From the NCBI GenBank assembly GCA_041739675.1, contig JBGSNL010000003.1:5846-69845 (forward strand): a stretch of DNA of 64,000 nt, written 5' to 3'. The translations under genes and the position numbers were made by a program. The DNA is from a bacterium. GTDB taxonomy: Bacteria; UBA10199; 2-02-FULL-44-16; DYJF01. Below are positions 6,752-54,495 of the stretch, piece by piece; the stretch's first letter is position 1, and each line of letters begins with the position of its first letter. The notes under the pieces were generated by a model, which ran no database searches, had not been told where the DNA came from, and was given only the letters and a program-made list of their open reading frames with translations.

Positions 6752-7909
6752 TTAAACATCATAACACCCTATCGCGCGCGAGATGACTATGCGCTGTATC
6801 TCGCTTGTGCCTTCGCCTATTTCTAAAAGTTTCTGGTCGCGGTAGAACCTCTCGATTTTGTATTCCTGCATGAGGCCGTAACCGCCGTGGAGCTGGACCG
6901 CGTGGTTCACGACGCGGTACATGACCTCCGAGCAGTAGAGCTTGGCCATCGCAGCCTCTTTTGAATAGGGTTTTTCATTGTCTTTCAGCCAGCAGGCCTT
7001 GTAGAGAAGGGAGCGCGCCGCTTCGATCTCGACTGCGCAGTCGGCCAGTTTGAACGCGTTGACCTGGAAAGTTGAAATGGGTTTTCCGAACTGCTTGCGT
7101 TCTTTCGCGTATTTCATGCCGAGCTCGAACGCACCCTGCGCGCCGCCCAACCCCATTGCCGCGATTGAGAGCCTTCCGGCGTCCAGTGTGTCCAACATCT
7201 GATGAAAACCCTCGTCGCGGTTGCCCAAAATGTGATCTTCCGGAACCTCAACGTTGTCGAAATAGAGTTCCGCGGTGTTTGAGGAGCGCCACACCATTTT
7301 ATTTTTCATAGCGCGTCTTGTGAATCCCTTGGAGTTGGACTCAACAATGATGCAGGAAAGTTCCTTTCTTCCGTCCGATCTCTTTCCGGTTGCCGCCTGA
7401 ACCGTGACGCCGGCAGTTATTTCCGTGGCGGCGTTCGTTATAAAGATTTTCGCGCCGTTGATTATCCATTTTCCGCCTTTGAGCTCAGCCGTGGTTTTTG
7501 TGGCGGCCGCATCGGAGCCGGCATCGGGTTCGGTTAGCCCGAAGCCCCAGAGTTTTTTGCCGGTGCAAAGTTCAGGCAGATATTTTTTCTTCTGTTTGTC
7601 GTTTCCAAATTTATAAAGAGGACCGATGCCAAGGGAATTTCCCGCGGCCACGGTTGCCGCCTGCGACCCGTCGATACGGGCCAGCTCCTCAACGAGGATG
7701 ATATACGAAAGATAGTCCATCCCCTGACCGCCGTATTTGGGATCGACCGTTATGCCGAAAAATCCCATCTCCCCCATTTTTTTAGTGATGTCGTAGGAGA
7801 ACTCCTCTTTGCGGTCTAACTCCTCCACTTTAGGAGCGATCTCCCCCTCAGCAAAATCGCGAACAGATTTTCTCAAAAGTTCCTGCTCCGGTAATAAATT
7901 GAAATCCAT
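6752..7909 (-). CDS. Acyl-CoA dehydrogenase (short/medium-chain type)
   Basis: Full-length ACAD architecture. N-terminus MDFNLLPEQELLRKSVRDFAEGEIAP and C-terminal YRDQKLLEIGEGTSEIQR motif. Confidence 0.85.
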   Translation of the reverse strand: MDFNLLPEQELLRKSVRDFAEGEIAPKVEELDRKEEFSYDITKKMGEMGFFGITVDPKYGGQGMDYLSYIILVEELARIDGSQAATVAAGNSLGIGPLYKFGNDKQKKKYLPELCTGKKLWGFGLTEPDAGSDAAATKTTAELKGGKWIINGAKIFITNAATEITAGVTVQAATGKRSDGRKELSCIIVESNSKGFTRRAMKNKMVWRSSNTAELYFDNVEVPEDHILGNRDEGFHQMLDTLDAGRLSIAAMGLGGAQGAFELGMKYAKERKQFGKPISTFQVNAFKLADCAVEIEAARSLLYKACWLKDNEKPYSKEAAMAKLYCSEVMYRVVNHAVQLHGGYGLMQEYKIERFYRDQKLLEIGEGTSEIQRIVISRAIGCYDV

Positions 7910-7917
7910 TTGCCCTC

Positions 7918-9354: not shown

Positions 9355-9431
9355 CGTTGAGGGTTTTCTATTTTATATCCCTCTTGTATTCAACTCAAAA
9401 ATGTTGGAAAATCAGCTCATTGGAGGTCTCT

Positions 9432-9839
9432 ATGATGACTCAATTTCTCGTCTTTGGAACCGTGGGGATGGTCGCGGAGGTTATCTTCACGTCCTTCAAG
9501 CGCCTCTTGAGCGACAGGACGTACGAGCTCAAGGGAGAGACCTCGCTTTGGATGTTTCCGGTCTACGGCCTGATCGCATTCATATTTCCGCTTGTAGTCT
9601 ACCGCATCGGCTCCTTCCCTTGGTATATCAGGGGCGCTGTCTATATGGTGATCTTCTTTATCGTGGAATATGTGAGCGGGTTAGTGCTCAGAAAGATGAA
9701 GGTGTGCCCGTGGAACTATCCGGCAAAATATTCGCTGAACGGGCTCATATATTTTCCCTACGCGCCGGTCTGGTTCGCGGCGGGGCTGGGTGTCGAGAGG
9801 ATCTATCCGGTGATCACGGCGCTTGGCAAAGCCATTTGA
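9432..9839 (+). CDS. Small polytopic membrane protein, function unknown
   Basis: Start chosen at MMTQFLVFGTVG with a GGAGG RBS. Four predicted TM helices. The 3' end overlaps the convergent hemY gene. Confidence 0.4.
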   Translation: MMTQFLVFGTVGMVAEVIFTSFKRLLSDRTYELKGETSLWMFPVYGLIAFIFPLVVYRIGSFPWYIRGAVYMVIFFIVEYVSGLVLRKMKVCPWNYPAKYSLNGLIYFPYAPVWFAAGLGVERIYPVITALGKAI

Positions 9840-31541: not shown

Positions 31542-31712
31542 ATGCAAATTACACGCAGACAATTCGGGCTGGCGATGGTCCTTGGAGCTTTGGCATTGGC
31601 ACTTTCAAGGATGTTCGGATTTCTTTTCCATAAGAGACCGGCTGACAGGGAAGTTTCGGGCGGAGGATACCCCGCCAAATACTGGAAACGCGCGGATCAT
31701 TTGGGCGGATAG
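31542..31712 (+). CDS. 56-codon small ORF encoding a twin-arginine-type signal peptide (leader/uORF or 5' duplication remnant)
   Basis: GGAGGTG RBS 4 nt before the ATG. MQITRRQFGLAMVLGALALALS is Tat-like (TRRQF followed by an h-region). Ends 20 nt before the Memo-AMMECR1 start. Confidence 0.3.
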   Translation: MQITRRQFGLAMVLGALALALSRMFGFLFHKRPADREVSGGGYPAKYWKRADHLGG

Positions 31713-31731
31713 TGTAAGCAAAGGGGGCGCC

Positions 31732-33201
31732 ATGCAGAGACGCAACGTTTTTTATATCTTGCTTGCGGCGTGTCTTCTTTTTCCGGGCGAGGGCTGCTCC
31801 AAGGTTAAGGCCCCGGCCGAAAAGAAGGCGGAACAGACAGTCGTGAAACCCGCAGTTGCGGGGGCGTTTTATCCCGCCGACAAAGAGATATTAAGCACGA
31901 CAATCGAAAAATATTTGAACGAGGCCGCTCCTGCGCCTGTGAGCGAGCACATATTCGGTATCGCGGTCCCGCACGCGGGTTATCAATATTCGGGGCCGGT
32001 CGCGGCATACGCCTACAAATCGATAGAGGGGAAAAAATATTCGACTGTTGTCGTCATGGCCCCGTCACATCGGGTCGGTTTTGAAGGTATCGCCCTCACG
32101 ACAAAGGATTTTTACGAGACGCCGCTGGGCCGGATCCCCATCGCAAAAGAGCTCTCGCAAAAACTCATGAGCGATTTTTCCTGGGCCAAAGACGATCCGC
32201 GCCCATACGGTATTGAGCATTCACTTGAGGTGGAGCTCCCCTTTTTGCAGACGGTGCTCAAAGATTTCAAAGTCCTTCCCATAATAGTCGGCGTTACAAA
32301 TCCCAACATGCTTTCAAAGCTGGCGGCAAAATTGAACGAGATGCTCCCCGGCGGGGATGTCCTTTTTGTCGCGAGCACCGATCTTTCCCACTACCACCCT
32401 TATAATGATGCGGCGGCGAGGGATAAAAAGACCATAAAAATCATCGAGGATATGAACGTTGCGGCGTTCGCTGCGGCGGAACTGAAGGGGGAGGCCGAGC
32501 TTTGCGGCGGCGCACCTGTCGAAACGCTCATGGAGATCGCAAAGCTTAGAAAGGGCAAGGCGAAGCTTGTGAAATACGCCAACTCCGGCGACGTTACGGG
32601 CGACAAGTCGCGCGTCGTGGGCTACGGGGCTTTTGTGTTCACAGGCGGGGCGGCAGCGGAAGAGGGTGCTCTTTCGGAGACGCAGAAAAAAACGCTGCTC
32701 GCGATTGCGAGAAATTCGATCGAGGCCGAGGTGTCAGGAAAGCCGCAGCCAAAGTTTGACATAAAAGATCCCGTTCTTCTCAAAGACGGCGCGGCATTTG
32801 TGACCATCAGGGAACACGGGGATTTGAGGGGCTGCATCGGCCACATCATGGCGGTGGGGCCGCTTTACAAATCGGTGCGCGATAACGCCGCCTCCGCGGC
32901 ATCGCAGGACCCGCGTTTTCCTCCGGTGAGGCCGGATGAACTTAAAAATATCGATCTTGAAATATCGGTTCTCACGCCGCCAGAGCCTCTTTTAAAACCG
33001 ATGGATGTCAGGATCGGAACCGACGGTCTCATCATACAAAAAGGATATAACCGCGGAGTCCTTCTGCCGCAGGTTCCCGGCGAGCAGGGCTGGGGAAAAG
33101 AAGAGTTTCTGGAAGGTATCTGCCGCAAGGCCGGCATGTCCGCCGGCTGCTGGAAAGACGCCAACCTCATGCGCTTCCAGGCTATCGTTTTTCATGAATA
33201 A
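31732..33201 (+). CDS. Memo-like (AmrB) and AMMECR1 (AmrA) fusion protein with an N-terminal signal-like segment
   Basis: Memo motifs AGAFYP, APSHRVGFEG and DLSHYH. C-terminal AMMECR1 motif LRGCIGHI. N-terminus MQRRNVFYILLAACLLFPG is signal-peptide-like. Confidence 0.75.
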   Translation: MQRRNVFYILLAACLLFPGEGCSKVKAPAEKKAEQTVVKPAVAGAFYPADKEILSTTIEKYLNEAAPAPVSEHIFGIAVPHAGYQYSGPVAAYAYKSIEGKKYSTVVVMAPSHRVGFEGIALTTKDFYETPLGRIPIAKELSQKLMSDFSWAKDDPRPYGIEHSLEVELPFLQTVLKDFKVLPIIVGVTNPNMLSKLAAKLNEMLPGGDVLFVASTDLSHYHPYNDAAARDKKTIKIIEDMNVAAFAAAELKGEAELCGGAPVETLMEIAKLRKGKAKLVKYANSGDVTGDKSRVVGYGAFVFTGGAAAEEGALSETQKKTLLAIARNSIEAEVSGKPQPKFDIKDPVLLKDGAAFVTIREHGDLRGCIGHIMAVGPLYKSVRDNAASAASQDPRFPPVRPDELKNIDLEISVLTPPEPLLKPMDVRIGTDGLIIQKGYNRGVLLPQVPGEQGWGKEEFLEGICRKAGMSAGCWKDANLMRFQAIVFHE

Positions 33202-33210
33202 AATGTTTGG

Positions 33211-35031
33211 CTATTGCGCTGTGCCCAGTTTCTGCCGGATGGAAGTGATCATTCCCGATATCTCTGCGTCCTGTTGCATGTCGGCGGGCATCAGTTGAAA
33301 CATGCTTTCAAAGAATTGCTTTGTGAAGTCGGAGGGTCTTCCATTAAGCGTAAATCCGTCGGCGACTACATGTAACGCTTCAGTAGCAGTATTTCTTTTT
33401 CCCAGAATCCAATCTATGCTTGATGTTATGAATAAAAATTCAATTTTAGAGATATCAAAAAATGTTTCGTCGCCAAAAGTCTTTACCAATGGATTTCCCA
33501 TCCATTTTTTAACTATGTAAACCGTCAAATTGTGTTGCACGTCATTGCGGTTTTCAGACTTCAATTGGAGACAGTGAGCGAGATCATTTATTGCCATGCT
33601 CAAATTCCCCTTTTGTAACCAGATAGTGCCACGGACAAAAAAGTAGTTTGAAGATGAGTAGATGTCGATGGCTTGTGTGCAAAAGTCTATTGCATCATCT
33701 AATGAATTCATTTGCCGCGAAATATTGCTAAGGGCGAGAAGTGCGTTAGCATTCATGTCATCCAACAGAATTGCCGTGCGCGCAGCATCTTCGGCTGCTG
33801 CTAAATTGTTATCTTGCACCAATAGGCAAGCTGAATTTGAATAAAATATGCTTAATGCTTGGCGCAATGCTAGAGGGAAATTTTTGCGATATTGCGCATC
33901 GCTTTGATAAAATATTGGATCAAAGAGACGTCGTTGATTATCAAGTTGCAGGCTGATGCAGAAATGATTGAAATCCGGATTGGATTTTGTCGCTCTCTCA
34001 AGTAGGGTGTTAGATCGTGTTCTGAGGCTTTCAGGGCCATCTAACAACGCGACGTCTTCCACTCCAAGACTTACCTGAAGAAATATGGGGTTGAGCCCAG
34101 CAGTTTCAAATACCGAAAAAAGGATCTTGGAGACCTCTGAACAATCTCCCTCGGTCCTATTAATGGCTTCTAGTGCCGTGTATTCCACCTCATTATATTT
34201 CGGACGCAGGCCGCCTCGACGCACGAGAAAATTTGCGAATTCTCCGAATTCAAATTTATTCAGTTCTTCGTTGGCGTAAAGCAAAAAATCCGGATTCAGT
34301 GTGGACAAGCCGGCAGGAGGAGTCGTTGTAAGCCAAAAAAGACCAAAGGCAAGCCGCTTTTTATATTCCTCCGTTCCTTCTACAAAGCCCTTTCTTGTTA
34401 TGATATCCTTTAGCAGGTTGATTGCGTCTGTCACTTTCGTTTGAATATCTTCATCAAAAGTTGTTTCCGGATTCAAGTCGTCGAGCACCCACGGGAGGGG
34501 ATGGCCAAGTGTGGCCTCTATGAGATTTCGAAAACGCTCATAGTTGTTCATGGCATATTCAAAGACCTCTTGAGAATCTATTTTCAGGTCATTGGCCCCT
34601 TTGATGCAGGATTTTTCTTCCTGTGACGCACAATATTTGCCGTCGAAATTTATGACATTGTAACCTTTATCAATATCACTTTGCGCAACCCCTTCTCTCA
34701 AAAGACCCTGATATAATTTGTATGCCTGCGGATTGTCCGACTCCTCAAAATTTAACGTTATCCTCGGAGCGGACGGCTCGCTTCCTTTATTTGTACAACC
34801 CGCTCCGAAAAGCATGAAGGGCCAGCCGAAAACTATTGCGGGGAGCATTGCTGGTTTTTCAGCATAGAAATCATAAACAGTTTTTACTCCATCAACGATT
34901 GCGCCCGGCGCAGCATCAACGGTTTCTTTTGCCGTCTCCGCTATGGTTTCAAGATCCGTGCAGTAATCGCCTATGCACGCCTCGTAATTGAATGGATTTA
35001 GGTCGCTCCAGCTGATGCCGCCAGAATACAT
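33211..35031 (-). CDS. Family member A: conserved N-terminal module (MYSGGISWSDLNPFNYEACIGDYCTDLETIAE), an internal hydrophobic segment and TPR-like repeats
   Basis: RBS GGAGGAAAC then ATG. 32-residue N-terminal near-identity with the 42247-44529 protein. No Sec signal. TPR-like C-terminal half. Visibly more A/T-rich than its neighbours. Confidence 0.6.
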   Translation of the reverse strand: MYSGGISWSDLNPFNYEACIGDYCTDLETIAETAKETVDAAPGAIVDGVKTVYDFYAEKPAMLPAIVFGWPFMLFGAGCTNKGSEPSAPRITLNFEESDNPQAYKLYQGLLREGVAQSDIDKGYNVINFDGKYCASQEEKSCIKGANDLKIDSQEVFEYAMNNYERFRNLIEATLGHPLPWVLDDLNPETTFDEDIQTKVTDAINLLKDIITRKGFVEGTEEYKKRLAFGLFWLTTTPPAGLSTLNPDFLLYANEELNKFEFGEFANFLVRRGGLRPKYNEVEYTALEAINRTEGDCSEVSKILFSVFETAGLNPIFLQVSLGVEDVALLDGPESLRTRSNTLLERATKSNPDFNHFCISLQLDNQRRLFDPIFYQSDAQYRKNFPLALRQALSIFYSNSACLLVQDNNLAAAEDAARTAILLDDMNANALLALSNISRQMNSLDDAIDFCTQAIDIYSSSNYFFVRGTIWLQKGNLSMAINDLAHCLQLKSENRNDVQHNLTVYIVKKWMGNPLVKTFGDETFFDISKIEFLFITSSIDWILGKRNTATEALHVVADGFTLNGRPSDFTKQFFESMFQLMPADMQQDAEISGMITSIRQKLGTAQ

Positions 35032-35104
35032 GTTTCCTCCTGTCAATCCTGTCAGGGATAGGTCATATCTAATTGATCGGGCGATGTATAGAGGAAATTG
35101 GGCC

Positions 35105-35141
35105 AAAAAAAAGGCCACTTGGTTGCCCAAGCGGCCCTTTT
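35105..35141 (-). terminator. Bidirectional Rho-independent terminator between the BNR lipoprotein gene and gene A
   Basis: 10 bp stem GGCCACTTGG / CCAAGCGGCC with loop TTGC. A-run on one side and T-run on the other. Confidence 0.65.
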
Positions 35142-35155
35142 TGGTTTCATTTCAA

Positions 35156-37753
35156 TTAGTGCGTTATTATCATCGGACTCAATGGCCTTGTCATGACTCT
35201 GAATGAGCTCGAAGGTTCAGTCGGCGTTTCCTCCGATGTCGGCGGAGCGGCCCCAACATCCACGCCACCCATGGTAGAACCGTCTCCGACTGCAGAGACT
35301 TTGTAGGTCACCTTAGCACCGGAAACAGTTGCTGCGATGGCGACGCTTCTCACTTCGCCCAGGTCAACCGCTTCGGGTGAATTGAGTACCGACCAGAACT
35401 CTCCGCCGTTGCGTGTGACCGCCATGCCAGTCGCTGTTCCTGCGAGAACGACCGGTCCGGTCTCATCCTGATTGTAAGCGGGATCGATTGCCAGTGATAG
35501 AACTGGGCCGGCAAGAGTCCCGGTTGTTTTCGTCCAGTTTGCGCTATCTTTATTGCTCACGTATACGCCGTCATCGGTTCCTGCGAAGAGCATGTCCGAC
35601 TTGGCGTCATAGGCGATGCTGTACACCGGTTGCGTACCGTCAAGCGCTCCACCTACAAACTGTGCCCAGCCTATTCCATTGCCGCTTTCGTTGACGTAGA
35701 CTCCACTGTTGGTTGCGGCGAAGATTTTTGTTCCGACTTCTTCCAAGTCATGCGCAACCTTTGAACCGTCTCTCGAATAGACGCCGTTCGTATCTTGATT
35801 TCTTGCCCCGATCCACGGTGTTCGCACTCTGTCCGCCGCGTGCTTGGCGGCATCCTCGGTAACGAGTATTCCGCGGTCATAGGCAACGATCAGGCGGCCG
35901 TCTTCTTTTGCTATCATGTCGCAAATCTGCCCCATCGAAACGATGTCGGCTGAGCTTGGTGCGTTGGAGATGCCGGTCTGTGTCTTGCCCGCGCACGTCT
36001 TATGGCTGCCCGAATATCCATCTCTCCTTGCGTAGAAGAAGATGTCGAACGGTTTCCAATCGCTGTCTTTTTCTCCTCCATTAGTTGTATACATGATGAG
36101 ACCGGTTGTGCCTACGTAAACAACGTTCGGATCGCCCTTTTTCACCGCGATGGCGTTCACGGGATAGGTTTTCACATAATTTGAGAAGAAATTGTTGTTC
36201 TGCCAGAGACCTCCGAGTTCAAAGGCATTCTTTATCGGATCCTCTATGCCGATGCCGTCCGCAAGTTCCTTGCTATCGGCAAAATTGCTCAGGCGATATA
36301 CTGAAATTTCACCGAATGCTTCGCGTTTCACGCCGTAATAGAAACGGCTTGCATCATTGGGATCGGCTATGACGCGTGTCACGGGCAATGCGTCACCAAC
36401 ACCGCCATGGAAGAACTGATGGCTCATCATCGGGATGATGCTCTGGATAGGATGTTGTGTCTCGGGAGTAGAAATTCCGATACGATTAATGACAATCGGG
36501 ATTCCCGACAAATCCGGGACCCTTGCTTTCACCTTTGTTCCTGCGACGAGATCTGCCTTATTAACGGCCTTACCGCCAACCGTGAGAGAGTCGATTCCGC
36601 TCACCGTTGCGGCGTCAGCCTGCACTTCAATCTCAACTTCTTCGGAGACGAAAGCCCACGGGCCGGCCTTGATGTCGAGGGCTGTCGTGTTGCCGCTCTG
36701 AAGGGCTACGACGACTGCGGCGCGGGCGCTATTCTCGCCCACCTGAGCGATCATGTCGAAGCGTGTATCAGAGGTCAGCGTGCAGAGGCTGTCCTGCATT
36801 CCGCCGGTCAAAACCTGTGCGGTCGGGAGCGCGGGCTCGCACGTCACGGGCTTGTCTGCTGTTACAGTCACCTGTGCACTTGCGGGGATCGCTTCATAAT
36901 GGACCGTTACTTGATCGGTGAAATTTGGAACCGTCACCAACGCTTCTTGTCCGTTGGCAGTGATCGTCGCTCTGATGTTGGATGCGTTGACCTGAATCGT
37001 GACGTCGTCGGTCTTTTCCTGACCGTCGGCGCATATGGCCTCAACAGTGTATTTCGTCGTCGCGGAAGGCGTCACCGTAGCTTCGCCTGACGTCGGGAAC
37101 GTATCGGCAACCGGCGTTCCGTCAGCTGCCACAACAGTTACCTGCGTCACGTCCGGACTTGCCGTCCATGTGATCGTCGTCGGGTCGCCGGCATTTACAG
37201 GAGTATCGCCTGCGCCGGATACGATGTCTACCGAACATTCGGATGCCGCAACTACAGCTACTGTAATAGTAGCCTGCGAGGTCACCGGTCCTGTCGGTAC
37301 AGGGTTCTCGGAAGGTGTTGGAACCGGCGGTTCTCCCGGAAGCGGTATCTGACCGGACTTGGACAGTTTGGATATGACGACTATCGCAGCCGCGCTTTCA
37401 TCGGCCGCCGCAAAAGTCTTGGATGCGGTGAGGATAAAGTCCGTCGTGTTCGTTATGCCATCCACCTGTGTGGAGCCCGAAAGCTCTTCAAAGGGGCCGG
37501 CATGGAACTGGAACACACCCTCCGGTGCTGATGCGACCTCTATCGAGTCCGCGTCCTCCACTTCCCAGTAGATCGTCGTGGATCCGCCAAGCGGAACCTG
37601 AGGCGGATCGGCCCTGAAGACCTTGATCACCGGTGGAGGCGGCGTGATATTCGCGCTCTGGCCGAGCTGAAGCTCGCCGTCGGAGCACGCGGCTGCGAAG
37701 GCCGCAATCGCGACCACCGCTATCATCCGCCATATTTTCGTTGTGTTCATCAT
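35156..37753 (-). CDS. Large lipoprotein with Ig-like domains and BNR/Asp-box (Ycf48/sortilin-like) beta-propeller repeats
   Basis: MMNTTKIWRMIAVVAIAAFAAAC is a lipoprotein signal. Repeated S-x-D-x-G-x-x-W-type Asp-box motifs (TNGGEKDSDW, SNKDSANWTK, TRNGGEFWSV). Thr/Val-rich Ig-like repeats. Confidence 0.6.
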   Translation of the reverse strand: MMNTTKIWRMIAVVAIAAFAAACSDGELQLGQSANITPPPPVIKVFRADPPQVPLGGSTTIYWEVEDADSIEVASAPEGVFQFHAGPFEELSGSTQVDGITNTTDFILTASKTFAAADESAAAIVVISKLSKSGQIPLPGEPPVPTPSENPVPTGPVTSQATITVAVVAASECSVDIVSGAGDTPVNAGDPTTITWTASPDVTQVTVVAADGTPVADTFPTSGEATVTPSATTKYTVEAICADGQEKTDDVTIQVNASNIRATITANGQEALVTVPNFTDQVTVHYEAIPASAQVTVTADKPVTCEPALPTAQVLTGGMQDSLCTLTSDTRFDMIAQVGENSARAAVVVALQSGNTTALDIKAGPWAFVSEEVEIEVQADAATVSGIDSLTVGGKAVNKADLVAGTKVKARVPDLSGIPIVINRIGISTPETQHPIQSIIPMMSHQFFHGGVGDALPVTRVIADPNDASRFYYGVKREAFGEISVYRLSNFADSKELADGIGIEDPIKNAFELGGLWQNNNFFSNYVKTYPVNAIAVKKGDPNVVYVGTTGLIMYTTNGGEKDSDWKPFDIFFYARRDGYSGSHKTCAGKTQTGISNAPSSADIVSMGQICDMIAKEDGRLIVAYDRGILVTEDAAKHAADRVRTPWIGARNQDTNGVYSRDGSKVAHDLEEVGTKIFAATNSGVYVNESGNGIGWAQFVGGALDGTQPVYSIAYDAKSDMLFAGTDDGVYVSNKDSANWTKTTGTLAGPVLSLAIDPAYNQDETGPVVLAGTATGMAVTRNGGEFWSVLNSPEAVDLGEVRSVAIAATVSGAKVTYKVSAVGDGSTMGGVDVGAAPPTSEETPTEPSSSFRVMTRPLSPMIITH

Positions 37754-37782
37754 ATCCTAAGCCCCTTTCTTCCTTAGATTGC

Positions 37783-39708
37783 TTATTGACCTATCCCAGG
37801 AAACGTTACTCCAAGTGTTGTAGAAACCGCCCAGTCGAAACCGTATTCTTCACCGGTCATGCTTGCCCCATCTCTCCCCATGAGATCGAGAGCTAACTCG
37901 CCAGTCAGCTTGCTGCCGTCGTCTCCGAATGGCGTTTCAAAACCAAGCTGTAAGCGTCCGACTGGCGAATCGTATCCTCTGTCATCACAGAAGGTATTCC
38001 CAGTGTCGGATTCAGTGAAACACGCATCGCCGTGGTTTCCGTAGTACAACATTGATACACCGGGAATCAGTTTGAATCTATCGGAGATACTGATCGGGAA
38101 ATTGGCGTATGCTTCCATATCGATGCGATACGCTTCGTAAGGCTGAACCGCTCTCCATGCATACGCTGTCAGAAGGTTCAATCCTATGACGACGTTTTCA
38201 TGGACTGTTCCTTCGATTTCAAGTTTTACTCTGACGACACCGGTTGCATCTGCGAGACCATAGCCGCCTACGGAACCCCCGATCGTAAGATCACCGTCTA
38301 AAAGATCTGCGCTTGCACCGACAACTGCGCCGCCGCCGTTTTCGCCGGTAACTGCGTCGGTCGTGGTTGTCACTTCACCGGTCGCCGGATCGGTCGTAGG
38401 GATGAGTCCGATGGATACACTCTGACCGCCGACGGCTTCGGCTGTAAGGGTCACATTATCTGTCACGGGGTATCGCATGCTGACATCCGCTCCGGCGAAT
38501 GATCTGCCGAAGAGCGATACCAGACCGCCGTTAACTCCGACGAATCCGCGCTTCTTGAATACTTCGTTTTCCGTTAAGAAGTAGTTCGCGCCTAAGGCAA
38601 GGTCCGTGATGTTGGCGGAATCGGATATTCCGTTGACAAGCTGGAGCAGTGCAATATCTTCGCTAGTAACCCTGTAATCCTGAGATCCCGCGGCCTCGAT
38701 TTTCATGCGAAGCAAGTTGATTGCCCAGTCTTTGATTACATAGGCGACGCCGCCGTCGAAGGAGAGCTCGCCTGACCATCCCAGAGAGCCGAAACCGCCC
38801 GATCCGCTTGCTACAAGACGCCAGAGCCAGCTTTCATCGTCATCAAAATTGACGACGCCCGGCATTCCACCCCCTGTGGGCCCTGCCACTACCGGATAGC
38901 GCGCAAGTTCAACGGTAATAATGCTGATTTCGTCTGCGCTGATAACTGTGTCGCCGTCAGTGTCCGAACCGGCTACGGTCACGTTGCTGATATAAGTTGT
39001 AAACAGGCGATTTAAAAGACCTTGCGCATCAAGATTTTCATCCCGCTGAATCTGGTCAATCTGTCCCACTAAGGCATCACCTATGGCCTCTTGGACATCG
39101 GGGTTGTCCTGCAAATTATCAGGCACCTGCGACATTGCGCTTTCATGCAGGCCGATAATTACGTCTCCTGTGGGCCTTCTGTACTGGCGATTTTGAAATG
39201 CTTCGGTGAGAGGATCGACCAGTGCATCTATCCCATTCAGAGTCGATCGCTGGACATTGTAATCCAAGAGATCCTGATTAGCCAAATCTCTCAGTGTCGT
39301 ACCCTCTAATGCCAACTCGCGCGCTTTACCGAACCAAGCTGGATATGTGAATCCTTCAAAGAACGGGATTATCTTGAGCGACTCTGATTGTGCCTGACGA
39401 AGCAAAGCTATATCCAAGCCGTCGACGGCTTGAGCTGTGCACTGATCGGCAGCTGTATATGCCGGATTGGAGTCTTCGCCCGGGTTCAACTGAAATGCGT
39501 ACCGGAGGCATGCCGATGTCGCCGATTCTGTTCCGACCATAACATATGTGTCATAGATACGAAGTTGTGCCGGAGTTAGGTCTTGCACGTTAGTGTCGTA
39601 CAGTCCTTCCACTGTAGTCCGGCACTCGGCGTTTTCCAGACCGCACATAGCAGTCGTTATTTGCCCACGATATTGGCTCTGACTGGTTACTTGTCCACCT
39701 GGCAACAT
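37783..39708 (-). CDS. Family member D: MLPGG N-terminus, beta-rich Gly/Asp-rich protein, no Sec signal
   Basis: RBS AAGGAGGAAAC then ATG, identical to gene A. Begins M-L-P-G-G. 29 nt upstream of the BNR lipoprotein gene. Confidence 0.5.
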   Translation of the reverse strand: MLPGGQVTSQSQYRGQITTAMCGLENAECRTTVEGLYDTNVQDLTPAQLRIYDTYVMVGTESATSACLRYAFQLNPGEDSNPAYTAADQCTAQAVDGLDIALLRQAQSESLKIIPFFEGFTYPAWFGKARELALEGTTLRDLANQDLLDYNVQRSTLNGIDALVDPLTEAFQNRQYRRPTGDVIIGLHESAMSQVPDNLQDNPDVQEAIGDALVGQIDQIQRDENLDAQGLLNRLFTTYISNVTVAGSDTDGDTVISADEISIITVELARYPVVAGPTGGGMPGVVNFDDDESWLWRLVASGSGGFGSLGWSGELSFDGGVAYVIKDWAINLLRMKIEAAGSQDYRVTSEDIALLQLVNGISDSANITDLALGANYFLTENEVFKKRGFVGVNGGLVSLFGRSFAGADVSMRYPVTDNVTLTAEAVGGQSVSIGLIPTTDPATGEVTTTTDAVTGENGGGAVVGASADLLDGDLTIGGSVGGYGLADATGVVRVKLEIEGTVHENVVIGLNLLTAYAWRAVQPYEAYRIDMEAYANFPISISDRFKLIPGVSMLYYGNHGDACFTESDTGNTFCDDRGYDSPVGRLQLGFETPFGDDGSKLTGELALDLMGRDGASMTGEEYGFDWAVSTTLGVTFPGIGQ

Positions 39709-39769
39709 GTTTCCTCCTTAATTTCCCCCGATTCACCTTCAATTCATCTCAATTTGAAAAAACTCCTTC

Positions 39770-39882
39770 ATAATTATCTAGGTATGCATGCGATTCCGTC
39801 ATCCGGTGCTCCATAAGCCATGTCAGCGGGTCCGCCGATTTCAGTCGGGCGTACTCTGATCTCTCTGCACGCCGCTTGTGTC
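39770..39882. repeat. DNA-level repeat, copy 1 (3' end of gene C plus its 3' UTR). Near-identical to 42242-42350.
   Basis: Shares the exact runs GTCAGCGGGTCCGCCGATTTCAGT and GGGCGTACTCTGATCTCTCTGCACGCC and overall high identity with the second copy. Confidence 0.7.
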
Positions 39883-41204
39883 GGTTGCGTCGGTTCAGTC
39901 GGCTGAGTCTGCTGATTCGGCACGCAATGTCCGTGGTCTCTGTGTTCTCCAGGAGGACACGTGCGCGGCGTGGTCGGCCTTACAGGCGGTGTCACAGGCG
40001 GTGTCGGTTCGGTTGCGACCGGCTCTGCGGGAACAAATCCATAGATGCTGTTCATGATCCACTGCACGAGTTCCCTGCGCTCCGGATCGGAAATGAATCC
40101 AAGATATACGTTCATCACAGCATCAGAAGGTCTCTGTTCGGGAAGAGCGCAACTGCTAAAAAGTTTCGCAAGGGCATCGCGTGCTCTTGCAATGTAGGTA
40201 TTGGCGTACTCGGCCTGTCCCGTCGCCTGCGAACTGTTGGCCGCTCTCACATACCATGCGGCCATGACGATGTCGGCCATCTGGTTGTCCTGAAATTTCA
40301 CTGTCGAAGACAGGGCGGTCAGGGCCGCTTTTACCTGAGTTTCATTGAGGCCTTCAACCGGCGCAACTGCGGCCAGGAAGTAATCGATCGGGAAGGTTGC
40401 GGATGTTATCGTGCCGCAAGTCGTCGCACCGAATTTTTTGAATGCTTCCTGAACGGCCGCGATATAGGCGTCCACATTTGTGTTTGCCTCGGCCGCAAAT
40501 GACCATCTGGCCTGCGCGATGTTGCTGTACTCGCCAACGTAATCGAGGACGTCCGGATGCCACGTTGTGACGCCGGAGAGTGTGAGAATGTCGAAGATCT
40601 GTTTCTGTTCGCCGGCGTATCTGGATTCAATGTTGACATTCACGGGAACGCGTTCCGGCGTAAAGTACGTTCCGTCCGCCCACGTATACCACTTGTCGAC
40701 GTGGCACACGTTGTCCATGGTGAAAGGTCCCGTCCATGATTGCGTCATCGTCCAGTCTATTGCGTTGTCCGCCGTGAGACCTTTTTCACGTCCCCACAAA
40801 GAAAGAAGGGATCTGAACGAGGCATTGGTCATTCTTGCGTTGATCTGAATGTCGTTTTGTATGACCTTGCAGTAGCTGTCTTCCGGATTGAAATAAGTTC
40901 TTGGAGCTACGGGAGCTGCAGGAGCCGGTTGAGGCGCCGGAGCTGCTGTTTCCGGTTTTGCTGCGTCTTGTGCGACAAGTGCTACCGTTTCATCATCTTC
41001 ACCGCAGGCCGATGCTACAGCAACGAAACCTGTCACTGGCAAAACAATTTCAGGCGCCAAAATTGCAGCCGCTACCCATGCGGCGGCTCCCAGAGCCGCC
41101 AAGAGGTCTTCAGGATCTTCATGTGAAGCATTGGCATGCAATTGGCCGGTTGCAAAATCGTGTTCCCATTTTACGAGTCCGCCATCAAATCCACCTGAAA
41201 ACAT
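39774..41204 (-). CDS. Family member C: MFSGG N-terminus, internal hydrophobic segment ending VASAC, C-terminal Cys-bracketed motif
   Basis: RBS AAGGAGGAAAT then ATG. C-terminal ACREIRVRPTEIGGPADMAYGAPDDGIACIPR is shared with the 42247-44529 protein. A Pro-rich linker precedes it. Confidence 0.55.
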   Translation of the reverse strand: MFSGGFDGGLVKWEHDFATGQLHANASHEDPEDLLAALGAAAWVAAAILAPEIVLPVTGFVAVASACGEDDETVALVAQDAAKPETAAPAPQPAPAAPVAPRTYFNPEDSYCKVIQNDIQINARMTNASFRSLLSLWGREKGLTADNAIDWTMTQSWTGPFTMDNVCHVDKWYTWADGTYFTPERVPVNVNIESRYAGEQKQIFDILTLSGVTTWHPDVLDYVGEYSNIAQARWSFAAEANTNVDAYIAAVQEAFKKFGATTCGTITSATFPIDYFLAAVAPVEGLNETQVKAALTALSSTVKFQDNQMADIVMAAWYVRAANSSQATGQAEYANTYIARARDALAKLFSSCALPEQRPSDAVMNVYLGFISDPERRELVQWIMNSIYGFVPAEPVATEPTPPVTPPVRPTTPRTCPPGEHRDHGHCVPNQQTQPTEPTQPTQAACREIRVRPTEIGGPADMAYGAPDDGIACIPR

Positions 41205-41397
41205 ATTTCCTCCTTACAAACTAAATAAGCCCGAGGACGCGCTGAATTTCATCGTTACGCTACCCAGTTGCATTATCGGATGACCCCCAAAAATGTTGCG
41301 TCCTTTTTTCTACCATCCCCCTCAATTCGCCCACTTCTTGGTGGGAACCCGCCGAAGTTTCAGTGGCGGGGCCCTCATCCTTATTTTCGTGCGAAAT

Positions 41398-41440
41398 AGA
41401 AAAAAGTTGCGCGGTATTTTTAAGCAATACCGCGCAACTT
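41398..41440 (-). terminator. Rho-independent terminator after gene E (14 bp perfect stem)
   Basis: AAGTTGCGCGGTAT-loop-ATACCGCGCAACTT followed on the minus strand by a U-run. Confidence 0.7.
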
Positions 41441-41466
41441 GTAATACGCTGATATTATTAAGTATT

Positions 41467-42213
41467 TTAGTGCTGTCCTTGTGCCCCTTGGCCTGCTGTC
41501 CACGGCACTTGGAATCCGCGTCCGGTGCCCGCATCGGCTGCAGGAGGAGGAGAAGGAGGAGGTGGCGGCGGCGTGGTCGTCGGACCGCCTTCACTCGAAC
41601 ACCTTTCAGCAGCCCTTTGCCTTGCACACTCGATATCCCCTTGGCATTGTGTAATTTCCGTGGCTGTTGGCTGGCAATTACTAGTAGATGGCGGCTGCTC
41701 GTTCATTTCGCGATGTGAACATCTGTCTTGAATACAAGCCGCGTAATCTTGAACATCCGGTCTTGAACATAATACTGTGTCTGAAGGTGTCGGCACACAT
41801 TCATAATGTGCCTGGCATTCTGTTCCCGCCAGGCCGGCTCGTATGTCGTCAACGGAACAAGGCGGCAACTGTGTGGCAACGTTTTGGCCGCTTAGTCTGT
41901 TTGCAAGCTCGAGCAAGAAGGAGGCAAAAGTATATGTACCGCCCCACAAGTTGATGCCTCCGTTTGATGAGCACATTTCGTTTGATTCAGCGGTGGGGCA
42001 AGTTTTGAATATCGTGTTTGCGATCACATAAGCAAAGCCTTCAAAAATAGCTTTAAGATTTTCCGGCACACGCTGCAGGTTGAGCGTGTAGGTATTGGTC
42101 GTATCCTGTACGCACTGAGTTATCTTGTCTTCAGTCTGCTCATTAGCGCATGCGAGCGAGGTGATTCTATCAAGCGTACTTCCGACATTTTGCGTCTGTC
42201 CTGCTGAAATCAT
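41467..42213 (-). CDS. Family member E: MISAGQ N-terminus, Cys-rich and Pro-rich small protein
   Basis: RBS AAAGGAGG then ATG. M-I-S-A-G fits the family start. Many Cys residues. C-terminal poly-Pro stretch (PPPPPPSPPP). Confidence 0.45.
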   Translation of the reverse strand: MISAGQTQNVGSTLDRITSLACANEQTEDKITQCVQDTTNTYTLNLQRVPENLKAIFEGFAYVIANTIFKTCPTAESNEMCSSNGGINLWGGTYTFASFLLELANRLSGQNVATQLPPCSVDDIRAGLAGTECQAHYECVPTPSDTVLCSRPDVQDYAACIQDRCSHREMNEQPPSTSNCQPTATEITQCQGDIECARQRAAERCSSEGGPTTTPPPPPPSPPPAADAGTGRGFQVPWTAGQGAQGQH

Positions 42214-42241
42214 AAGGCCTCCTTTTGAAGCGTTGTTCAAT

Positions 42242-42350
42242 ATAAATTATCTGGGTACACAAGCAATGCCGTCATTTGGCTCTCCATAAGCTCTGTCAGC
42301 GGGTCCGCCGATTTCAGTTGGGCGTACTCTGATCTCTCTGCACGCCGGAG
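42242..42350. repeat. DNA-level repeat, copy 2 (3' end of gene B plus its 3' UTR). Near-identical to 39770-39882.
   Basis: Same exact runs as copy 1. Conservation extends past the stop codon into the AATTAT-rich 3' flank. Confidence 0.7.
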
Positions 42351-44529
42351 GCGGAGGAGGTGGTGGTGCTACGACTATCTTGCAATTATCGTCACAATTC
42401 GGAGTGCCGTCGCATTCCTCGCCGCGTTCCACTCTGCCGTTGCCGCATTCGATGGTAGGCGGTGGAACCGCATTCCTTGTGCAATCGTTTCTGCAGCCGT
42501 CGTTGTTATTTGTATTTCCGTCGTCGCACTGCTCGCGTCCTTCCACAACATGATCGCCGCACCTGATCGTGTGCACAGGCTCACCTTGAGGTGTCACGCA
42601 CGAACCGGCTAAACCCGTCGTCGTCGCCTGTCCGTCGGGGCACGGTTCGCAGCTGCAATCTTCCGGATTGAGCACTTGCGGCGGTGTGTTCTGGCTGAAG
42701 CACCACTCTGCGGCAGTCATCTGCATGTTGCACTGCTGCGTAGCCTCAACGAACATCCTGGCAGGGCTCTGCTCATGGCAGCACTCTCCCGGCGTGACAA
42801 CATGCGGCTGCCTTATGCGGTCTCGCAACGTTTCTTCTCCATGTATCGGCTGTCCACCCAGCGGCCAGAAGTCGAAGGCGATTCCGTCATTCATCTTCTG
42901 GATGTATTCAAGCAGAAGGCGTGACCAGTAGTGGTCATCGGCGCAGGTGGGGCAACGATCATACGAGCGTTGTACCGCACCGTTGATCTCCTTTAGTATC
43001 TCCGTCCTGATCGTCTCTTTGGTTTCACCCGCGCGGCGCCAGATATAATCGTTGGCGTATTGGCGGATGGACATCCTCATGTCGAGCCCCGTCGCTGGAT
43101 CGGCAAAGCCTCCCATGACGAGAATGATGTTGTCCTGCTCGTCCAACTCGACCCACCACTCGCCCGTGTCTATCTTGCCCGTGCTGTCCGCGTTTGACAG
43201 TTCGTCCCAGCGCATGTGGTAAATGGCGGCTGTCTGGAAATACAAAGATGCGGCATGGCCCGCCAAAGGTGTAGCCCAATCAATACGGTTGGACTGCGCG
43301 CGGCCCGGAGTTCCCCAATCGATGTCCCGCCAGGTGAAATCGAAGTCGAACTTATGCATATCGGGGTATTTGACCCCGGCGGCTGCGGTCATATTCATTA
43401 GCACAAGCTCGTATCTTTGGACCGCGTCGGGGTTGTTGTTAGAAAGGTCGGTCATAAGCACGGAGACTTCGTTCATCCTATTCCTGATATCATCTTGTAT
43501 TTGACCTATTAAAACATCATCCGCTTCAATGATAGTCTGGTCTTTCCCATCACTTACATCTTTCTCTCTTTTGGCGACGGCTTCTTCAAGTTTCTTGAAG
43601 AGGTCTTGGAGGTTGAAAGGCAAGCGCCGGAGGTTATCTTCCAGCGCATATTCCAGCGGCGTCCTGGGCAGAGTATAATCTGGTTCGAAGAATTTCTTGA
43701 AATCCTCAAGGAAGGCGGCGCGAACGTCGGGATAACGCGATGACACCAGCAGATTTGCAGTGTGGTTGAGATACTCCGTGGCCTCTACGAGATTCGGGGG
43801 CCAGAAAAACCAGCCGGGTATTGCGCTGGTGAGCCTTGTCGCCTCCATCAGTTTTATGATGGACCATACTCTCGAATCATCGTCATTGAGACCGTTTGAA
43901 AAACTCCAGAAAGAGGCGGGCGTGTCCGACCACGTCCAGAAGCCGTCGGTTTCAAGGATGTTGCGTCCGCATATGACGTCTTTGTGATCGGGGTTGTAGA
44001 TGCGCCACGCATTAAAGGAACAAGTATCTTGCGCCCCGAAAAAGCCCGTAAAGTTGCCGGGGTGGTCGGAGCAGATAATTCCACCGTGCACCATCGAGCC
44101 CCAGAATTCGAAAGACTCCTGGCTTCCGCGCGAGCGACATGCGCCGAGGTCCTCGTCGTAATAATCAGTGAGCGATTTGTCGGCAAGCTCATCATAGTTG
44201 ACATAGTCCTCTCTCAGATATTTCCTTTCAGCGAGAGGCGTTGTCTCTTTTCTGGGGTCGGGCGTGGGGATTTCGTTGCCGCCACAGCCCGCGCCTAAAA
44301 TACTGAGCGCCACTTTTCCGATCGCACGCTCCGGCGCTGTAAAATTATCGACGAAATTCCCAAGTGGATCGTCGCTCGTGACGTACGCCTCTTCCAACGC
44401 TTCACGAAAGAAATTGTTGGCTGCGGAGTACTGTTCGGCAACTGTGTCCAAACTGGTACAGTAGTCACCTATGCACGCTTCATAATTGAACGGATTAAAG
44501 TCGCTTAATGAAATGCCCCCTGAAAACAT
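42247..44529 (-). CDS. Family member B: conserved N-terminal module, Myxococcus-type cysteine-rich repeats and the C-terminal Cys-bracketed motif
   Basis: RBS AGGAGGCAAC then ATG. MFSGGISLSDFNPFNYEACIGDYCTSLDTVAE matches gene A. C-terminal region has CGDHVVEGREQCDDGN...DGC and CGNGRVERGEECDG repeats. The last 31 aa match gene C. Confidence 0.6.
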   Translation of the reverse strand: MFSGGISLSDFNPFNYEACIGDYCTSLDTVAEQYSAANNFFREALEEAYVTSDDPLGNFVDNFTAPERAIGKVALSILGAGCGGNEIPTPDPRKETTPLAERKYLREDYVNYDELADKSLTDYYDEDLGACRSRGSQESFEFWGSMVHGGIICSDHPGNFTGFFGAQDTCSFNAWRIYNPDHKDVICGRNILETDGFWTWSDTPASFWSFSNGLNDDDSRVWSIIKLMEATRLTSAIPGWFFWPPNLVEATEYLNHTANLLVSSRYPDVRAAFLEDFKKFFEPDYTLPRTPLEYALEDNLRRLPFNLQDLFKKLEEAVAKREKDVSDGKDQTIIEADDVLIGQIQDDIRNRMNEVSVLMTDLSNNNPDAVQRYELVLMNMTAAAGVKYPDMHKFDFDFTWRDIDWGTPGRAQSNRIDWATPLAGHAASLYFQTAAIYHMRWDELSNADSTGKIDTGEWWVELDEQDNIILVMGGFADPATGLDMRMSIRQYANDYIWRRAGETKETIRTEILKEINGAVQRSYDRCPTCADDHYWSRLLLEYIQKMNDGIAFDFWPLGGQPIHGEETLRDRIRQPHVVTPGECCHEQSPARMFVEATQQCNMQMTAAEWCFSQNTPPQVLNPEDCSCEPCPDGQATTTGLAGSCVTPQGEPVHTIRCGDHVVEGREQCDDGNTNNNDGCRNDCTRNAVPPPTIECGNGRVERGEECDGTPNCDDNCKIVVAPPPPPPPACREIRVRPTEIGGPADRAYGEPNDGIACVPR

Positions 44530-53401: not shown

Positions 53402-54292
53402 TTACTTGAGCTTCCTGCGTATCGCCAGAGGGGCAATAGAGATGGCGAGAATCAGAATAGAGACCACATTTGACGCGTGACCCGTGTTGACGATAGTCGA
53501 GCTGCATCCGCCGCCGGTGGAGGCGCTGCCGGTATCGCATGCATCGCCTATTCCGTCGCCGTCCGTATCGATCTGGTCCGCATTCTCTTCAGCAACGCAG
53601 TTATCGACGTCATCAAAAAGTCCGTCTGCGTCTGTGTCGGGGCAGCCCCACTCATTGACCGCGGTGCTGGCAGGTGTATCCACGCAAAGATCGTCAACGT
53701 CGGCTACTGTGTCGCCGTCCGTGTCTATCGGGAGAGAACCGGTGAGATCGGGGTCGTCAGCAATTATGGTGCATCCGACTTCGTCCACTTCGGTATCTGC
53801 GGGGGTATCGCCGCATTCGTCGTCGCCATTACGGATTCCGTCGCCATCGTTATCAAGAGTCGGCCATGCAGAAACCTCTGGTCTCAATGGATAGGCGGAA
53901 AGTATCTCAATTGGGCAACCGTGACTATCGACCGTGGTTCCCGGTACCGTGTATAGACAATCATCTTCACTGTCCAAAACGTCATCGCCGTCGTCGTCGT
54001 TATCGAAGAGATCCCTTATTCCGTCATCATCGTAATCACCGAACATAGATGGAGGGCAACCGTTTCTGGCGGGGTTGGTATTGGCTATACCCTGCTTATC
54101 AGGGCAAGCGTCTACGCTGTTTGCGATGCCATCGCTATCAGTGTCGGAAGAAGGCAGCGTTCTGCTCACCCCGACATCTATTTCATAGCCACTGAGTGCT
54201 ATGTCGTCACTCGCCGGTTCCGCCATCACTTTGGCGCCGACCAGCAAGCCGGCAACGACTATCAGGGCAAACACAAAAAACTTTGACTTCAT
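53402..54292 (-). CDS. Secreted thrombospondin-type-3-like Ca-binding repeat protein with a MYXO-CTERM/PEP-CTERM-class C-terminal tail
   Basis: Start chosen at MKSKFFVFALIVVAGLLVGAKVMA with a GGGAGGAAC RBS. Repeated DxDxDGxxDxxD motifs. C-terminus GGGCSS-x10-VVSILILAISIAPLAI-RRKLK. Confidence 0.65.
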   Translation of the reverse strand: MKSKFFVFALIVVAGLLVGAKVMAEPASDDIALSGYEIDVGVSRTLPSSDTDSDGIANSVDACPDKQGIANTNPARNGCPPSMFGDYDDDGIRDLFDNDDDGDDVLDSEDDCLYTVPGTTVDSHGCPIEILSAYPLRPEVSAWPTLDNDGDGIRNGDDECGDTPADTEVDEVGCTIIADDPDLTGSLPIDTDGDTVADVDDLCVDTPASTAVNEWGCPDTDADGLFDDVDNCVAEENADQIDTDGDGIGDACDTGSASTGGGCSSTIVNTGHASNVVSILILAISIAPLAIRRKLK

Positions 54293-54495
54293 AGTTCCTC
54301 CCACTGTTTGTTCAGCCTGATATAAAGCAAGAAGAATGCCAAATTCGCATGGAGAAAAAGTCAATGATTGTGAAGTGTTAAAGTTTGGTGATATGAAACC
54401 CACATTATATATATGGAGAATCGGTCCAAATATGGGGTCTTGAGTCACCATAAGAAATCTTGCCTTTTATTGATTCTTTCCATAGGCTGCGCCTC

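Follow-up and report, generated by a model that had tools for sequence, protein, structure and literature searches.

Acidic cysteine-rich repeats, catalogued as TIGR02232 (myxo_disulf_rpt, 'cysteine-rich acidic repeat'), PF13948 (DUF4215) and IPR011936, are widespread in bacteria and eukaryotes and usually occur in many tandem copies. Twelve copies of this type have been reported in one diatom protein, and the repeat has been described in secreted or adhesive proteins. A second point of comparison is provided by bacterial lipoproteins, whose signals, processed by signal peptidase II, are described by PROSITE entry PS51257 with the core motif {DERK}(6)-[LIVMFWSTAG](2)-[LIVMFYSTAGCQ]-[AGS]-C. 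The accompanying rule places the cysteine at residues 15-35 and a Lys or Arg among the first seven residues. In type 5 secretion, which includes autotransporters and two-partner secretion, a signal peptide of the signal peptidase I type is preceded by an extended signal peptide region (ESPR) some 25 residues long, whose motif differs from the one treated here. The title and abstract of PMC2805444 concern long autotransporter signal sequences, in which a conserved N-terminal extension stands ahead of a signal sequence of ordinary type, and this analogy was the only one found in the literature on extended lipoprotein signal peptides.

Protein B, a 760-aa product encoded on the minus strand at 42247..44529 (stop codon included; from the list of open reading frames) of the 64 kb window, that is, the whole stretch of DNA analysed, touches on each of these systems. 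It is read, with a probability of roughly 70%, as a lineage-restricted, fast-evolving and most likely cell-envelope protein of an uncultured Bdellovibrio-like Gram-negative bacterium, in which the repeat belongs to a mosaic tail of cysteine modules. Its first repeat is like the TIGR02232 family in cysteine spacing, acidic signature and score, and the tandem arrangement with a short proline-rich linker is found as well in the DUF4215 protein P0011. In contrast to the long arrays of the family, protein B holds 1.5 copies, the second without the DDGN...DGC half; the host protein lacks a canonical signal peptide, and the repeat is not kept in its orthologues.

Identity of the cysteine-rich repeats

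The first-pass annotation had quoted two peptides from the C-terminal region of protein B, and both lie exactly where they were placed: repeat 1, CGDHVVEGREQCDDGNTNNNDGCRNDC (aa 657-683, 42481..42561, minus strand), and repeat 2, CGNGRVERGEECDGTPNCDDNC (aa 695-716, 42382..42447, minus strand). The assignment of both to the Myxococcus cysteine-rich repeat class holds for repeat 1, which the proposed TIGR02232 HMM search recovers as a genuine TIGR02232/DUF4215 unit, and does not extend to repeat 2, a sub-threshold half-match. With a curated cut-off of 20.8 bits, the TIGR02232 model scores 33.8 bits on the whole protein (E=2.1e-8, 13 bits over the cut-off), 41.5 bits on repeat 1 alone (E=8.5e-11) and 11.6 bits on repeat 2 alone (E=0.18), the last alignment covering profile positions 3-16 only. 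The Pfam DUF4215 model, with a gathering score of 27 bits, gives 26.4 bits on full-length protein B, 0.6 bit below that score, 29.0 bits on its 179-aa tail and 33.9 bits on repeat 1 alone; PF13948.12 is also listed in the precomputed annotation of P0001.

The four cysteines of repeat 1 (C657, C668, C679 and C683) are spaced C-x10-C-x10-C-x3-C, as in P0011, and carry the acidic signature E-x-C-D-D-G-N...D-G-C. Repeat 2 keeps four cysteines in the spacing C-x10-C-x5-C-x3-C, its loop between the second and third being 5 residues long, not 10, and the DDGN...DGC element is absent. P0011, an unrelated metagenomic protein, was the single match in a protein search with the repeat region alone; the segment from repeat 1 through the linker to repeat 2 aligns with its two tandem PF13948 units at 50% identity over 58 residues, with a 5-residue gap required in repeat 2, and its second unit likewise contains EECDGAP. 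This tandem alignment, together with the gap of 11 residues between repeats 1 and 2, supports reading repeat 2 as a shortened, degenerate copy of the TIGR02232 unit.

A six-frame regular-expression scan of the 64 kb window found no further copies of the motif, and a PDB sequence search with the repeat region returned nothing significant. Matches of repeat 2 to the LDL-receptor class A protein LDLRAD3 in that search (phmmer, E about 0.3-0.4) reflect a weak likeness through an acidic C-D-G-x-x-x-C-x-D string and were dismissed as noise; cysteine number and spacing differ, and no Pfam Ldl_recept_a match was found in protein B. Each TIGR02232 unit would form an acidic knot with four cysteines and presumably two disulfides, and its role in the tail may be that of a rigid spacer or an adhesive element rather than that of the functional core of the protein.

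Architecture of protein B

Protein B, which is encoded on an NCBI contig of 75.5 kb, stands alone at 90% clustering, and a strong Shine-Dalgarno sequence, AGGAGGCAAC, directly 5' of the ATG supports its start codon. Its conserved N-terminal region, MFSGGISLSDFNPFNYEACIGDYCTSLDTVAE (aa 1-32, 44434..44529, minus strand), is 81% identical to the start of the paralogue T606; the two genes differ there mainly at third codon positions, and the region is conserved at the protein level. Beyond it, a body predicted to be mostly helical (aa ~100-580) leads into a C-terminal tail of ~180 residues, which runs from a cysteine core through a mini-module, repeat 1, repeat 2 with its 5-residue deletion and a poly-proline linker to a terminal loop.

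The core (ECCH...C...EWC...C.C; aa 583-627, 42649..42783, minus strand) is conserved across the family, with C583, C584, C600, C610, C625 and C627 invariant in alignment A4, which comprises protein B and its four orthologues. The CPxGQ mini-module, CPDGQATTTGLAGSC (aa 630-644, 42598..42642, minus strand), recurs in related tails, where C.PCP.GQ.T..G..C-like strings were recognized by eye, without statistics, near the C-termini of P0009 and L001_6490. The poly-proline linker (aa 722-728, 42346..42366, minus strand), read from the sequence, has counterparts ahead of the tail in most orthologues, as a proline-rich stretch in P0006 and P0009 and in weaker form in P0007 and P0008. Finally, the 31-residue Cys-loop tail, CREIRVRPTEIGGPADRAYGEPNDGIACVPR (aa 730-760, 42250..42342, minus strand), is common to the paralogue E476, whose C-terminus matches it at 77% amino acid identity and at 87% DNA identity over 103 nt.

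The body shares no Pfam domain among the five family members, and a PDB sequence search with the family profile returned nothing significant. An AlphaFold2 model based on the five-sequence alignment was unusable (mean pLDDT 43, pTM 0.36; pLDDT about 30 in the repeat region). An assembly chimera as the source of the repeats was ruled out, since a second assembly, the Logan assembly of run SRR28170473, matches 37166..42708 at 100% identity, repeats included, and since family-typical modules lie on either side of them.

Orthologues and distribution of the family

An exhaustive phmmer search with aa 1-640 of protein B against 1.84 billion representative proteins identified four homologues, P0006-P0009, bringing this very rare family to five sequences. 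Each homologue's gene lies in divergent orientation to the aminotransferase-MMPL genes, the arrangement seen in the window too. This exhaustive search was needed because word-indexed protein searches, with full-length protein B or with the five-sequence alignment, returned protein B alone, their candidates probably being swamped by poly-proline and cysteine-rich words. A scan of GTDB genomes for the N-terminal domain with the patterns SD[FL]NPFNY and EACIGDYC yielded nothing, and scans with the family alignment recovered no more than one already known entry per collection, DYJF01000064.1 among the genomes and Ga0185342_1001868 among the metagenomes.

The cysteines of the repeats had been expected to be conserved in orthologues, an expectation that largely failed: the repeat is missing from all four positional orthologues, TIGR02232 does not match P0006-P0009 even at E<=10, and DUF4215 matches one of the five family members. 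At the position of the repeat, the orthologues carry a different element, C-x2-C-x9-DG-x2-C. Because these four homologues occupy the same chromosomal position without the repeat, it is specific to the lineage of protein B, and the best explanation would be that the TIGR02232 units were gained in that lineage only or were remodelled beyond recognition elsewhere. Among the relatives, neighbouring genes are 67-89% identical, whereas protein B itself is 33-43% identical, a comparison that indicates fast evolution of the protein. The relatives comprise the assembly GCA_020723205.1 and the runs SRR28170473, ERR7850084 and SRR22387967.

The repeat had also been taken as a hint at the lineage of the organism. 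One relative is labelled Bdellovibrio sp., which fits loosely, while the repeat's presence throughout bacteria and eukaryotes weakens the hint. As the closest orthologues lack the repeat, it gives no basis for deducing the function of protein B or the lineage of the organism.

Probable export signal and displaced lipobox-like site

As had been claimed, a canonical signal peptide is missing from the N-terminus of protein B. Hydrophobicity in the protein is highest in a short stretch ending in a cysteine, AIGKVALSILGAGC (aa 69-82, 44284..44325, minus strand), which forms a displaced lipobox-like site. Cys82 is invariant in alignments A1 and A4 and is conserved in orthologues and paralogues. The likeness to PS51257 lipoprotein signals lies in a short hydrophobic, uncharged segment that leads through small residues to an invariant cysteine; the core motif occurs in seven relatives (E476, T606, P0007, P0008, L001_4939, L001_6490 and L004_5273), and protein B departs from it by one residue, a lysine at -10. 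The position differs clearly, the cysteine lying at residue 82 in protein B and at 67-90 in its relatives, after a conserved M-x-x-G-G region of ~45-65 residues, in place of 15-35; only L865 and L004_9659, both with Cys23, are canonical by position.

Export would probably proceed through the short hydrophobic stretch and Cys82, a signal that resembles a lipoprotein signal peptide shifted ~60 residues downstream by the conserved M-x-S-G-G region, with Cys82 as the putative lipidated residue. The ESPR is comparable as a conserved N-terminal extension ahead of an ordinary signal sequence, but the extension considered here is 45-65 residues long, starts with M-x-S-G-G and leads to a lipobox-like site, and domain scans, Pfam among them, found no type 5 secretion domains in protein B. 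An argument for full disulfide pairing from a consistently even number of cysteines after the putative lipidated one was dropped, as the count is even in three proteins (B, P0006 and E476) and odd in four other relatives. The extracellular location proposed from the repeat is plausible on other grounds, being better based on the hydrophobic stretch with Cys82 and on the envelope-related neighbours.

Alternative explanations

The resemblance to TIGR02232 could in principle be a chance match of a low-complexity stretch rich in D, N, G and C, with neither peptide belonging to the family, and such a match would suit a protein with only 1.5 copies where many in tandem are typical, a second copy below threshold, a whole-protein DUF4215 score 0.6 bit short and orthologues in which the repeat is not found. 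The HMM scores already largely refute it, since repeat 1 lies 13 bits over the TIGR02232 cut-off in the whole protein (E=2e-8) and, scanned alone, reaches 33.9 bits with DUF4215, and the four-cysteine spacing equal to that of P0011, with 50% identity across 58 residues, makes coincidence a very remote prospect. A different objection accepts the repeats and places the protein in the cytoplasm, where the cysteine modules and both repeats would bind metal in the manner of zinc knuckles and aa 69-82 would be a buried helix. This seems unlikely: the repeat has been described in secreted or adhesive proteins, poly-proline linkers are present, the cysteine after the hydrophobic stretch is invariant in orthologues and paralogues with the lipobox motif in seven relatives, a classic lipoprotein is encoded in the same cluster, and divergence as fast as this is characteristic of exposed proteins. 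These observations have to be set against the absence of an N-terminal signal peptide, the shortness of the hydrophobic stretch (about 13 residues, one of them Lys) and its failure of the strict lipobox motif, the CxxC pairs (C526/C529) and a CSCEPC string, and the cluster proteins D641 and C248, which are without any hydrophobic leader.

Somewhat less probable again is an uncleaved signal anchor, by which protein B would sit unlipidated in the inner membrane, its body and tail in the periplasm and its first ~65 residues on the cytoplasmic side. That topology would make the conserved N-terminal region a cytoplasmic domain, and the hydrophobic regions of E476 and L001_6490, about 30-35 residues, have membrane-spanning length; in protein B and the four orthologues, however, the stretch measures some 12-14 residues, fewer than a transmembrane helix needs, and in every case small residues and a cysteine come after it. 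A cell-envelope protein exported through a displaced lipobox-like signal is the preferred reading.

The six-gene cluster

The gene for protein B belongs to a cluster of six on the minus strand at 33211..44529, five of whose products start with M-x-x-G-G. Counting the window together with four related sources, 14 proteins have this motif, and its glycine codons vary. Downstream of the gene for protein B lies C248 (41467..42213, minus strand), encoding a cysteine- and proline-rich protein of 248 aa that starts MISAGQ, with the Shine-Dalgarno sequence AGGAGGCCTT before its ATG; gene calling on the Logan contig recovered this 248-aa gene as well, and its tail, ADAGTGRGFQVPWTAGQG, is the tail of the orthologue P0009. 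C248 is probably co-transcribed with the gene for protein B, and a terminator-like hairpin with a 15-bp stem and a T run (41404..41440, minus strand; terminator scan) follows it and may close this unit.

The other members are two paralogues and two further proteins. E476 (39774..41204, minus strand) combines an MFSGG start with the lipobox motif at Cys67 and the C-terminal tail of protein B, and T606 (33211..35031, minus strand) joins the N-terminal 32 aa of protein B to a lipobox motif at Cys79 and TPR repeats. D641 (37783..39708, minus strand) starts MLPGGQ, lacks a hydrophobic leader and is weakly similar to L004_6929 (sequence end ...LQFKLTW); its C-terminal half, with alternating, beta strand-like character, may form an outer-membrane barrel. 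L865 (35156..37753, minus strand) is a lipoprotein with a classic signal peptide and the PS51257 core motif at lipobox Cys23, a propeller-like C-terminal part and a partial match to the glycosylhydrolase-like family NF045728, and it is 50% identical to L004_9659. In addition to this lipoprotein, an outer-membrane beta-barrel match and an MMPL transporter nearby place protein B in an envelope context. A phage origin of the cluster was rejected because PHROGs gave nothing meaningful for its six proteins.

A tentative and, on balance, doubtful proposal is that the cluster and its counterparts in the four related sources constitute a previously undescribed system for sorting or assembling envelope proteins in an uncultured lineage of Bdellovibrionota. 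Its marks would be rapid divergence, an N-terminal M-x-[SAGP]-G-G motif, to which 'class 1' members add the pre-region of 45-65 residues and the displaced lipobox, and proline linkers followed by short C-terminal tails. These tails, common to paralogues within a genome and differing between genomes, would resemble sorting tags or ligand-binding tips that can be exchanged, and the TIGR02232 units of protein B would be one kind among several small cysteine cassettes that shuffling has brought into them.

Significance

The TIGR02232 match in protein B is an ordinary domain match that adds one protein to a large known family; it is of little importance in itself and is one weak indicator of export among several. 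More weight falls on the cluster, with its rare family, fast evolution, unusual N-terminal motif, displaced lipobox and swappable tails. Should these traits be the signature of a dedicated route of export or surface display, they would bear on the ways in which Bdellovibrio-like bacteria build and diversify their surface.

Repeat class and position in protein B

Both cysteine-rich peptides that the first-pass annotation had quoted lie in protein B, the 760-residue product of a minus-strand open reading frame at 42247..44529, whose final ~150 codons occupy 42247-42700: repeat 1, CGDHVVEGREQCDDGNTNNNDGCRNDC (residues 657-683; 42481..42561, minus strand), and repeat 2, CGNGRVERGEECDGTPNCDDNC (residues 695-716; 42382..42447, minus strand). 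A six-frame regular-expression scan of the 64-kb window revealed no further motifs of this kind. The Logan assembly of run SRR28170473 is 100% identical over 37166..42708, which rules out that mis-assembly of this record produced the repeat region.

The NCBIfam model TIGR02232 (myxo_disulf_rpt), whose curated cut-off is 20.8 bits, matched residues 656-684 of whole protein B with a score of 33.8 (E=2.1e-8) and repeat 1 by itself with 41.5 bits. Against DUF4215 (PF13948), the Pfam model for this repeat, which has a gathering score of 27, full-length B reached 26.4 bits, repeat 1 by itself 33.9 and the 179-residue tail 29.0. Repeat 1 is a genuine TIGR02232 "cysteine-rich acidic repeat" unit, whereas the Myxococcus-type class proposed for both peptides is only half matched in repeat 2, which by itself scored 11.6 bits (E=0.18) and covers only profile positions 3-16. 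Repeat 2 retains four cysteines, but its second loop is cut from 10 residues to 5, with DDGN...DGC missing. A search with the repeat region recovered a single database protein, P0011, an unrelated metagenomic protein with tandem PF13948 units, whose alignment with B, 58 residues long and 50% identical, takes in repeat 1, the linker and the beginning of repeat 2; EECDGAP also occurs in the second unit of P0011, and the first can be aligned to repeat 2 with a 5-residue gap. Based on the HMM scores and this alignment, repeat 2 is best read as a degenerate, shortened unit beside one genuine unit. The finding is an ordinary one, adding one more member of a known repeat family within an otherwise orphan protein.

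Orthologues and divergence

An exhaustive phmmer search of 1.84 billion representative proteins with residues 1-640 of B returned four homologues (P0006, 43% identical; P0007, P0008 and P0009, each 37%), together with the window paralogue T606 (33211..35031, minus strand), matched via its N-terminus only. All four homologues are divergently paired with an aminotransferase class III gene, next to which, as in the window, stands an MMPL gene on L003 and L008, the two contigs reaching far enough; they are positional orthologues. In two relatives (L001 and L008), the B orthologue is separated from the aminotransferase gene by a small 23S_rRNA_IVP-family gene, and L008 also carries a Y1_Tnp transposase at this place (L001, 2589-2747; L008, 6204-6557 and 4037-4528). 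As both are absent from this spot in the window, it appears prone to insertion.

TIGR02232 matched none of the four orthologues even at E≤10, and DUF4215 matched one of the five family members. Opposite repeat 1, the alignment of B with its orthologues shows a ...C-x2-C-x9-DG-x2-C... element (e.g. TGCESCPPETPITEDGLTCIAR); MAFFT pairs some cysteines and the DG of repeat 1 with it, but no model detected a relationship between the two. Given the missing matches and the different element, the repeat is specific to the window's lineage. Conservation of the repeat cysteines among orthologues thus fails; an upstream cysteine core (C583, C584, C600, C610, C625 and C627) is invariant. The lineage suggested from the repeat, myxobacteria and their relatives, agrees loosely with the source of P0006, labelled Bdellovibrio sp. 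isolate FI88_57_8, a genus assigned to Bdellovibrionota by NCBI, but the repeat itself, widespread across bacteria and eukaryotes and missing from the nearest relatives' orthologues, is a poor marker. With MnmG, RsmG, class II RNR, ThyX, ThiI and HemA among its genes, the window is chromosomal DNA.

The body of B (residues ~100-580) has no relatives in Pfam, NCBIfam, PHROGs or PDB, and an AlphaFold2 model from the five-sequence alignment, unusable at a mean pLDDT of 43, suggests a mostly helical fold. B is 33-43% identical to its orthologues, compared with 67-89% for the adjoining aminotransferase, MMPL and deoxyhypusine-synthase-like genes on the same contigs, and so diverges fast. Its C-terminal ~180 residues form a mosaic of conserved cysteine core, CPDGQ...C mini-module (found again in the P0009 tail and in that of L001_6490, a protein on contig L001), repeat 1, repeat 2, poly-proline linker and a 31-residue Cys-loop tail. 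This last is common to B (42250..42342) and its paralogue E476 (39777..39869), at 77% protein identity and 87% DNA identity over 103 nt. Likewise, EVVRNPFAD is common to the tails of P0006 and L001_6490 in L001, and SPTPNEIL.G..G.IC to those of P0008 and L004_5273 in L004; the P0009 tail in L008, ADAGTGGRGFQVPWTAGQG, equals that of window protein C248 (41467..41560). Such short tails, mostly behind proline-rich linkers, are shared by paralogues within a genome and differ between genomes (window, L001, L004 and L008), a pattern suggestive of gene conversion or of exchangeable tags.

N-terminus, location and proposed role

The reported absence of a canonical N-terminal signal peptide in B was confirmed. 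Its most hydrophobic segment, AIGKVALSILGAGCG, spans residues 69-83, and Cys82 is invariant among orthologues and paralogues. Seven related proteins satisfy the PROSITE lipobox core motif at the equivalent cysteine (residues 67-90), from which B is one residue short; all eight break the rule placing the cysteine at residues 15-35. The N-terminal extension is indeed translated, because a strong AGGAGG Shine-Dalgarno precedes each ATG, most differences between B and T606 over the first 32 codons fall at third positions, and Gly-Gly codons vary across 14 proteins encoded in the window and in four related sources. We infer that, in B, a conserved pre-region displaces a signal of the lipoprotein type.

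The surroundings of B fit an envelope role: L865 (35156..37753, minus strand) is a classic lipoprotein (Cys23), D641 may be a beta-barrel protein, and an OMP beta-barrel match, an MMPL transporter and a thrombospondin-type-3-repeat anchor protein lie close by. Each repeat unit is most likely a small acidic knot of four cysteines, a rigid spacer or adhesive element within an exported, fast-evolving tail; to the overall picture we assign a probability of about 0.7. That the repeat resemblance arose by chance is contradicted by the HMM scores and scarcely credible. An uncleaved signal anchor formed by the hydrophobic stretch is improbable, and a cytoplasmic, metal-binding protein B is rather unlikely.

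Gene cluster

Five of the six cluster proteins (33211..44529, minus strand), namely B, C248 (41467..42213), E476 (39774..41204), D641 (37783..39708) and T606, start with M-x-x-[GA]-G behind a strong AGGAGG Shine-Dalgarno, as do nine proteins of orthologous clusters (L001, 2870-8474; L004, 3175-9610; L003, 7630-9687; L008, 6740-8827). Position 2 always holds a bulky or basic residue (F, L, I, Y, K or R), and because the Gly codons vary, selection on the motif acts at protein level. A known signal with such a motif did not turn up, nor do we know of one. Directly after C248, a very strong terminator-like hairpin (41404..41440, minus strand; 15-bp stem and T run) implies a two-gene B-C248 transcript apart from E476.

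The C-terminal half of D641 resembles alternating beta strands, and its L004 relative (6929-9610) terminates in ...LQFKLTW, like an outer-membrane barrel. Both lack a hydrophobic signal peptide, start with MLPGGQ and MFGGGQ, respectively, and have a cysteine ~22-30 residues in. T606, which has TPR repeats, also contains GDCSEVSKILFSVFETAGLNPIFLQV and, further on, ...NHFC...FDP; by eye these two strings resemble a transglutaminase-like Cys-His-Asp core that no Pfam match supports. Elsewhere in the window, a 349-residue protein (53402..54451, minus strand) with thrombospondin type 3 repeats partially matches PA1041 peptidoglycan-anchor lipoprotein, Myxococcus MtsC and TraB models, an architecture typical of myxobacterial-type envelope proteins, and one open reading frame (31582..33201, plus strand) joins Memo-like and AMMECR1 domains behind a signal- or lipoprotein-like N-terminus.

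The cluster context is a more novel lead than the repeat match: the M-x-x-G-G starts, the displaced lipobox and the tails shared within but different between genomes may, as a tentative and somewhat doubtful proposal, mark a new sorting or display system.
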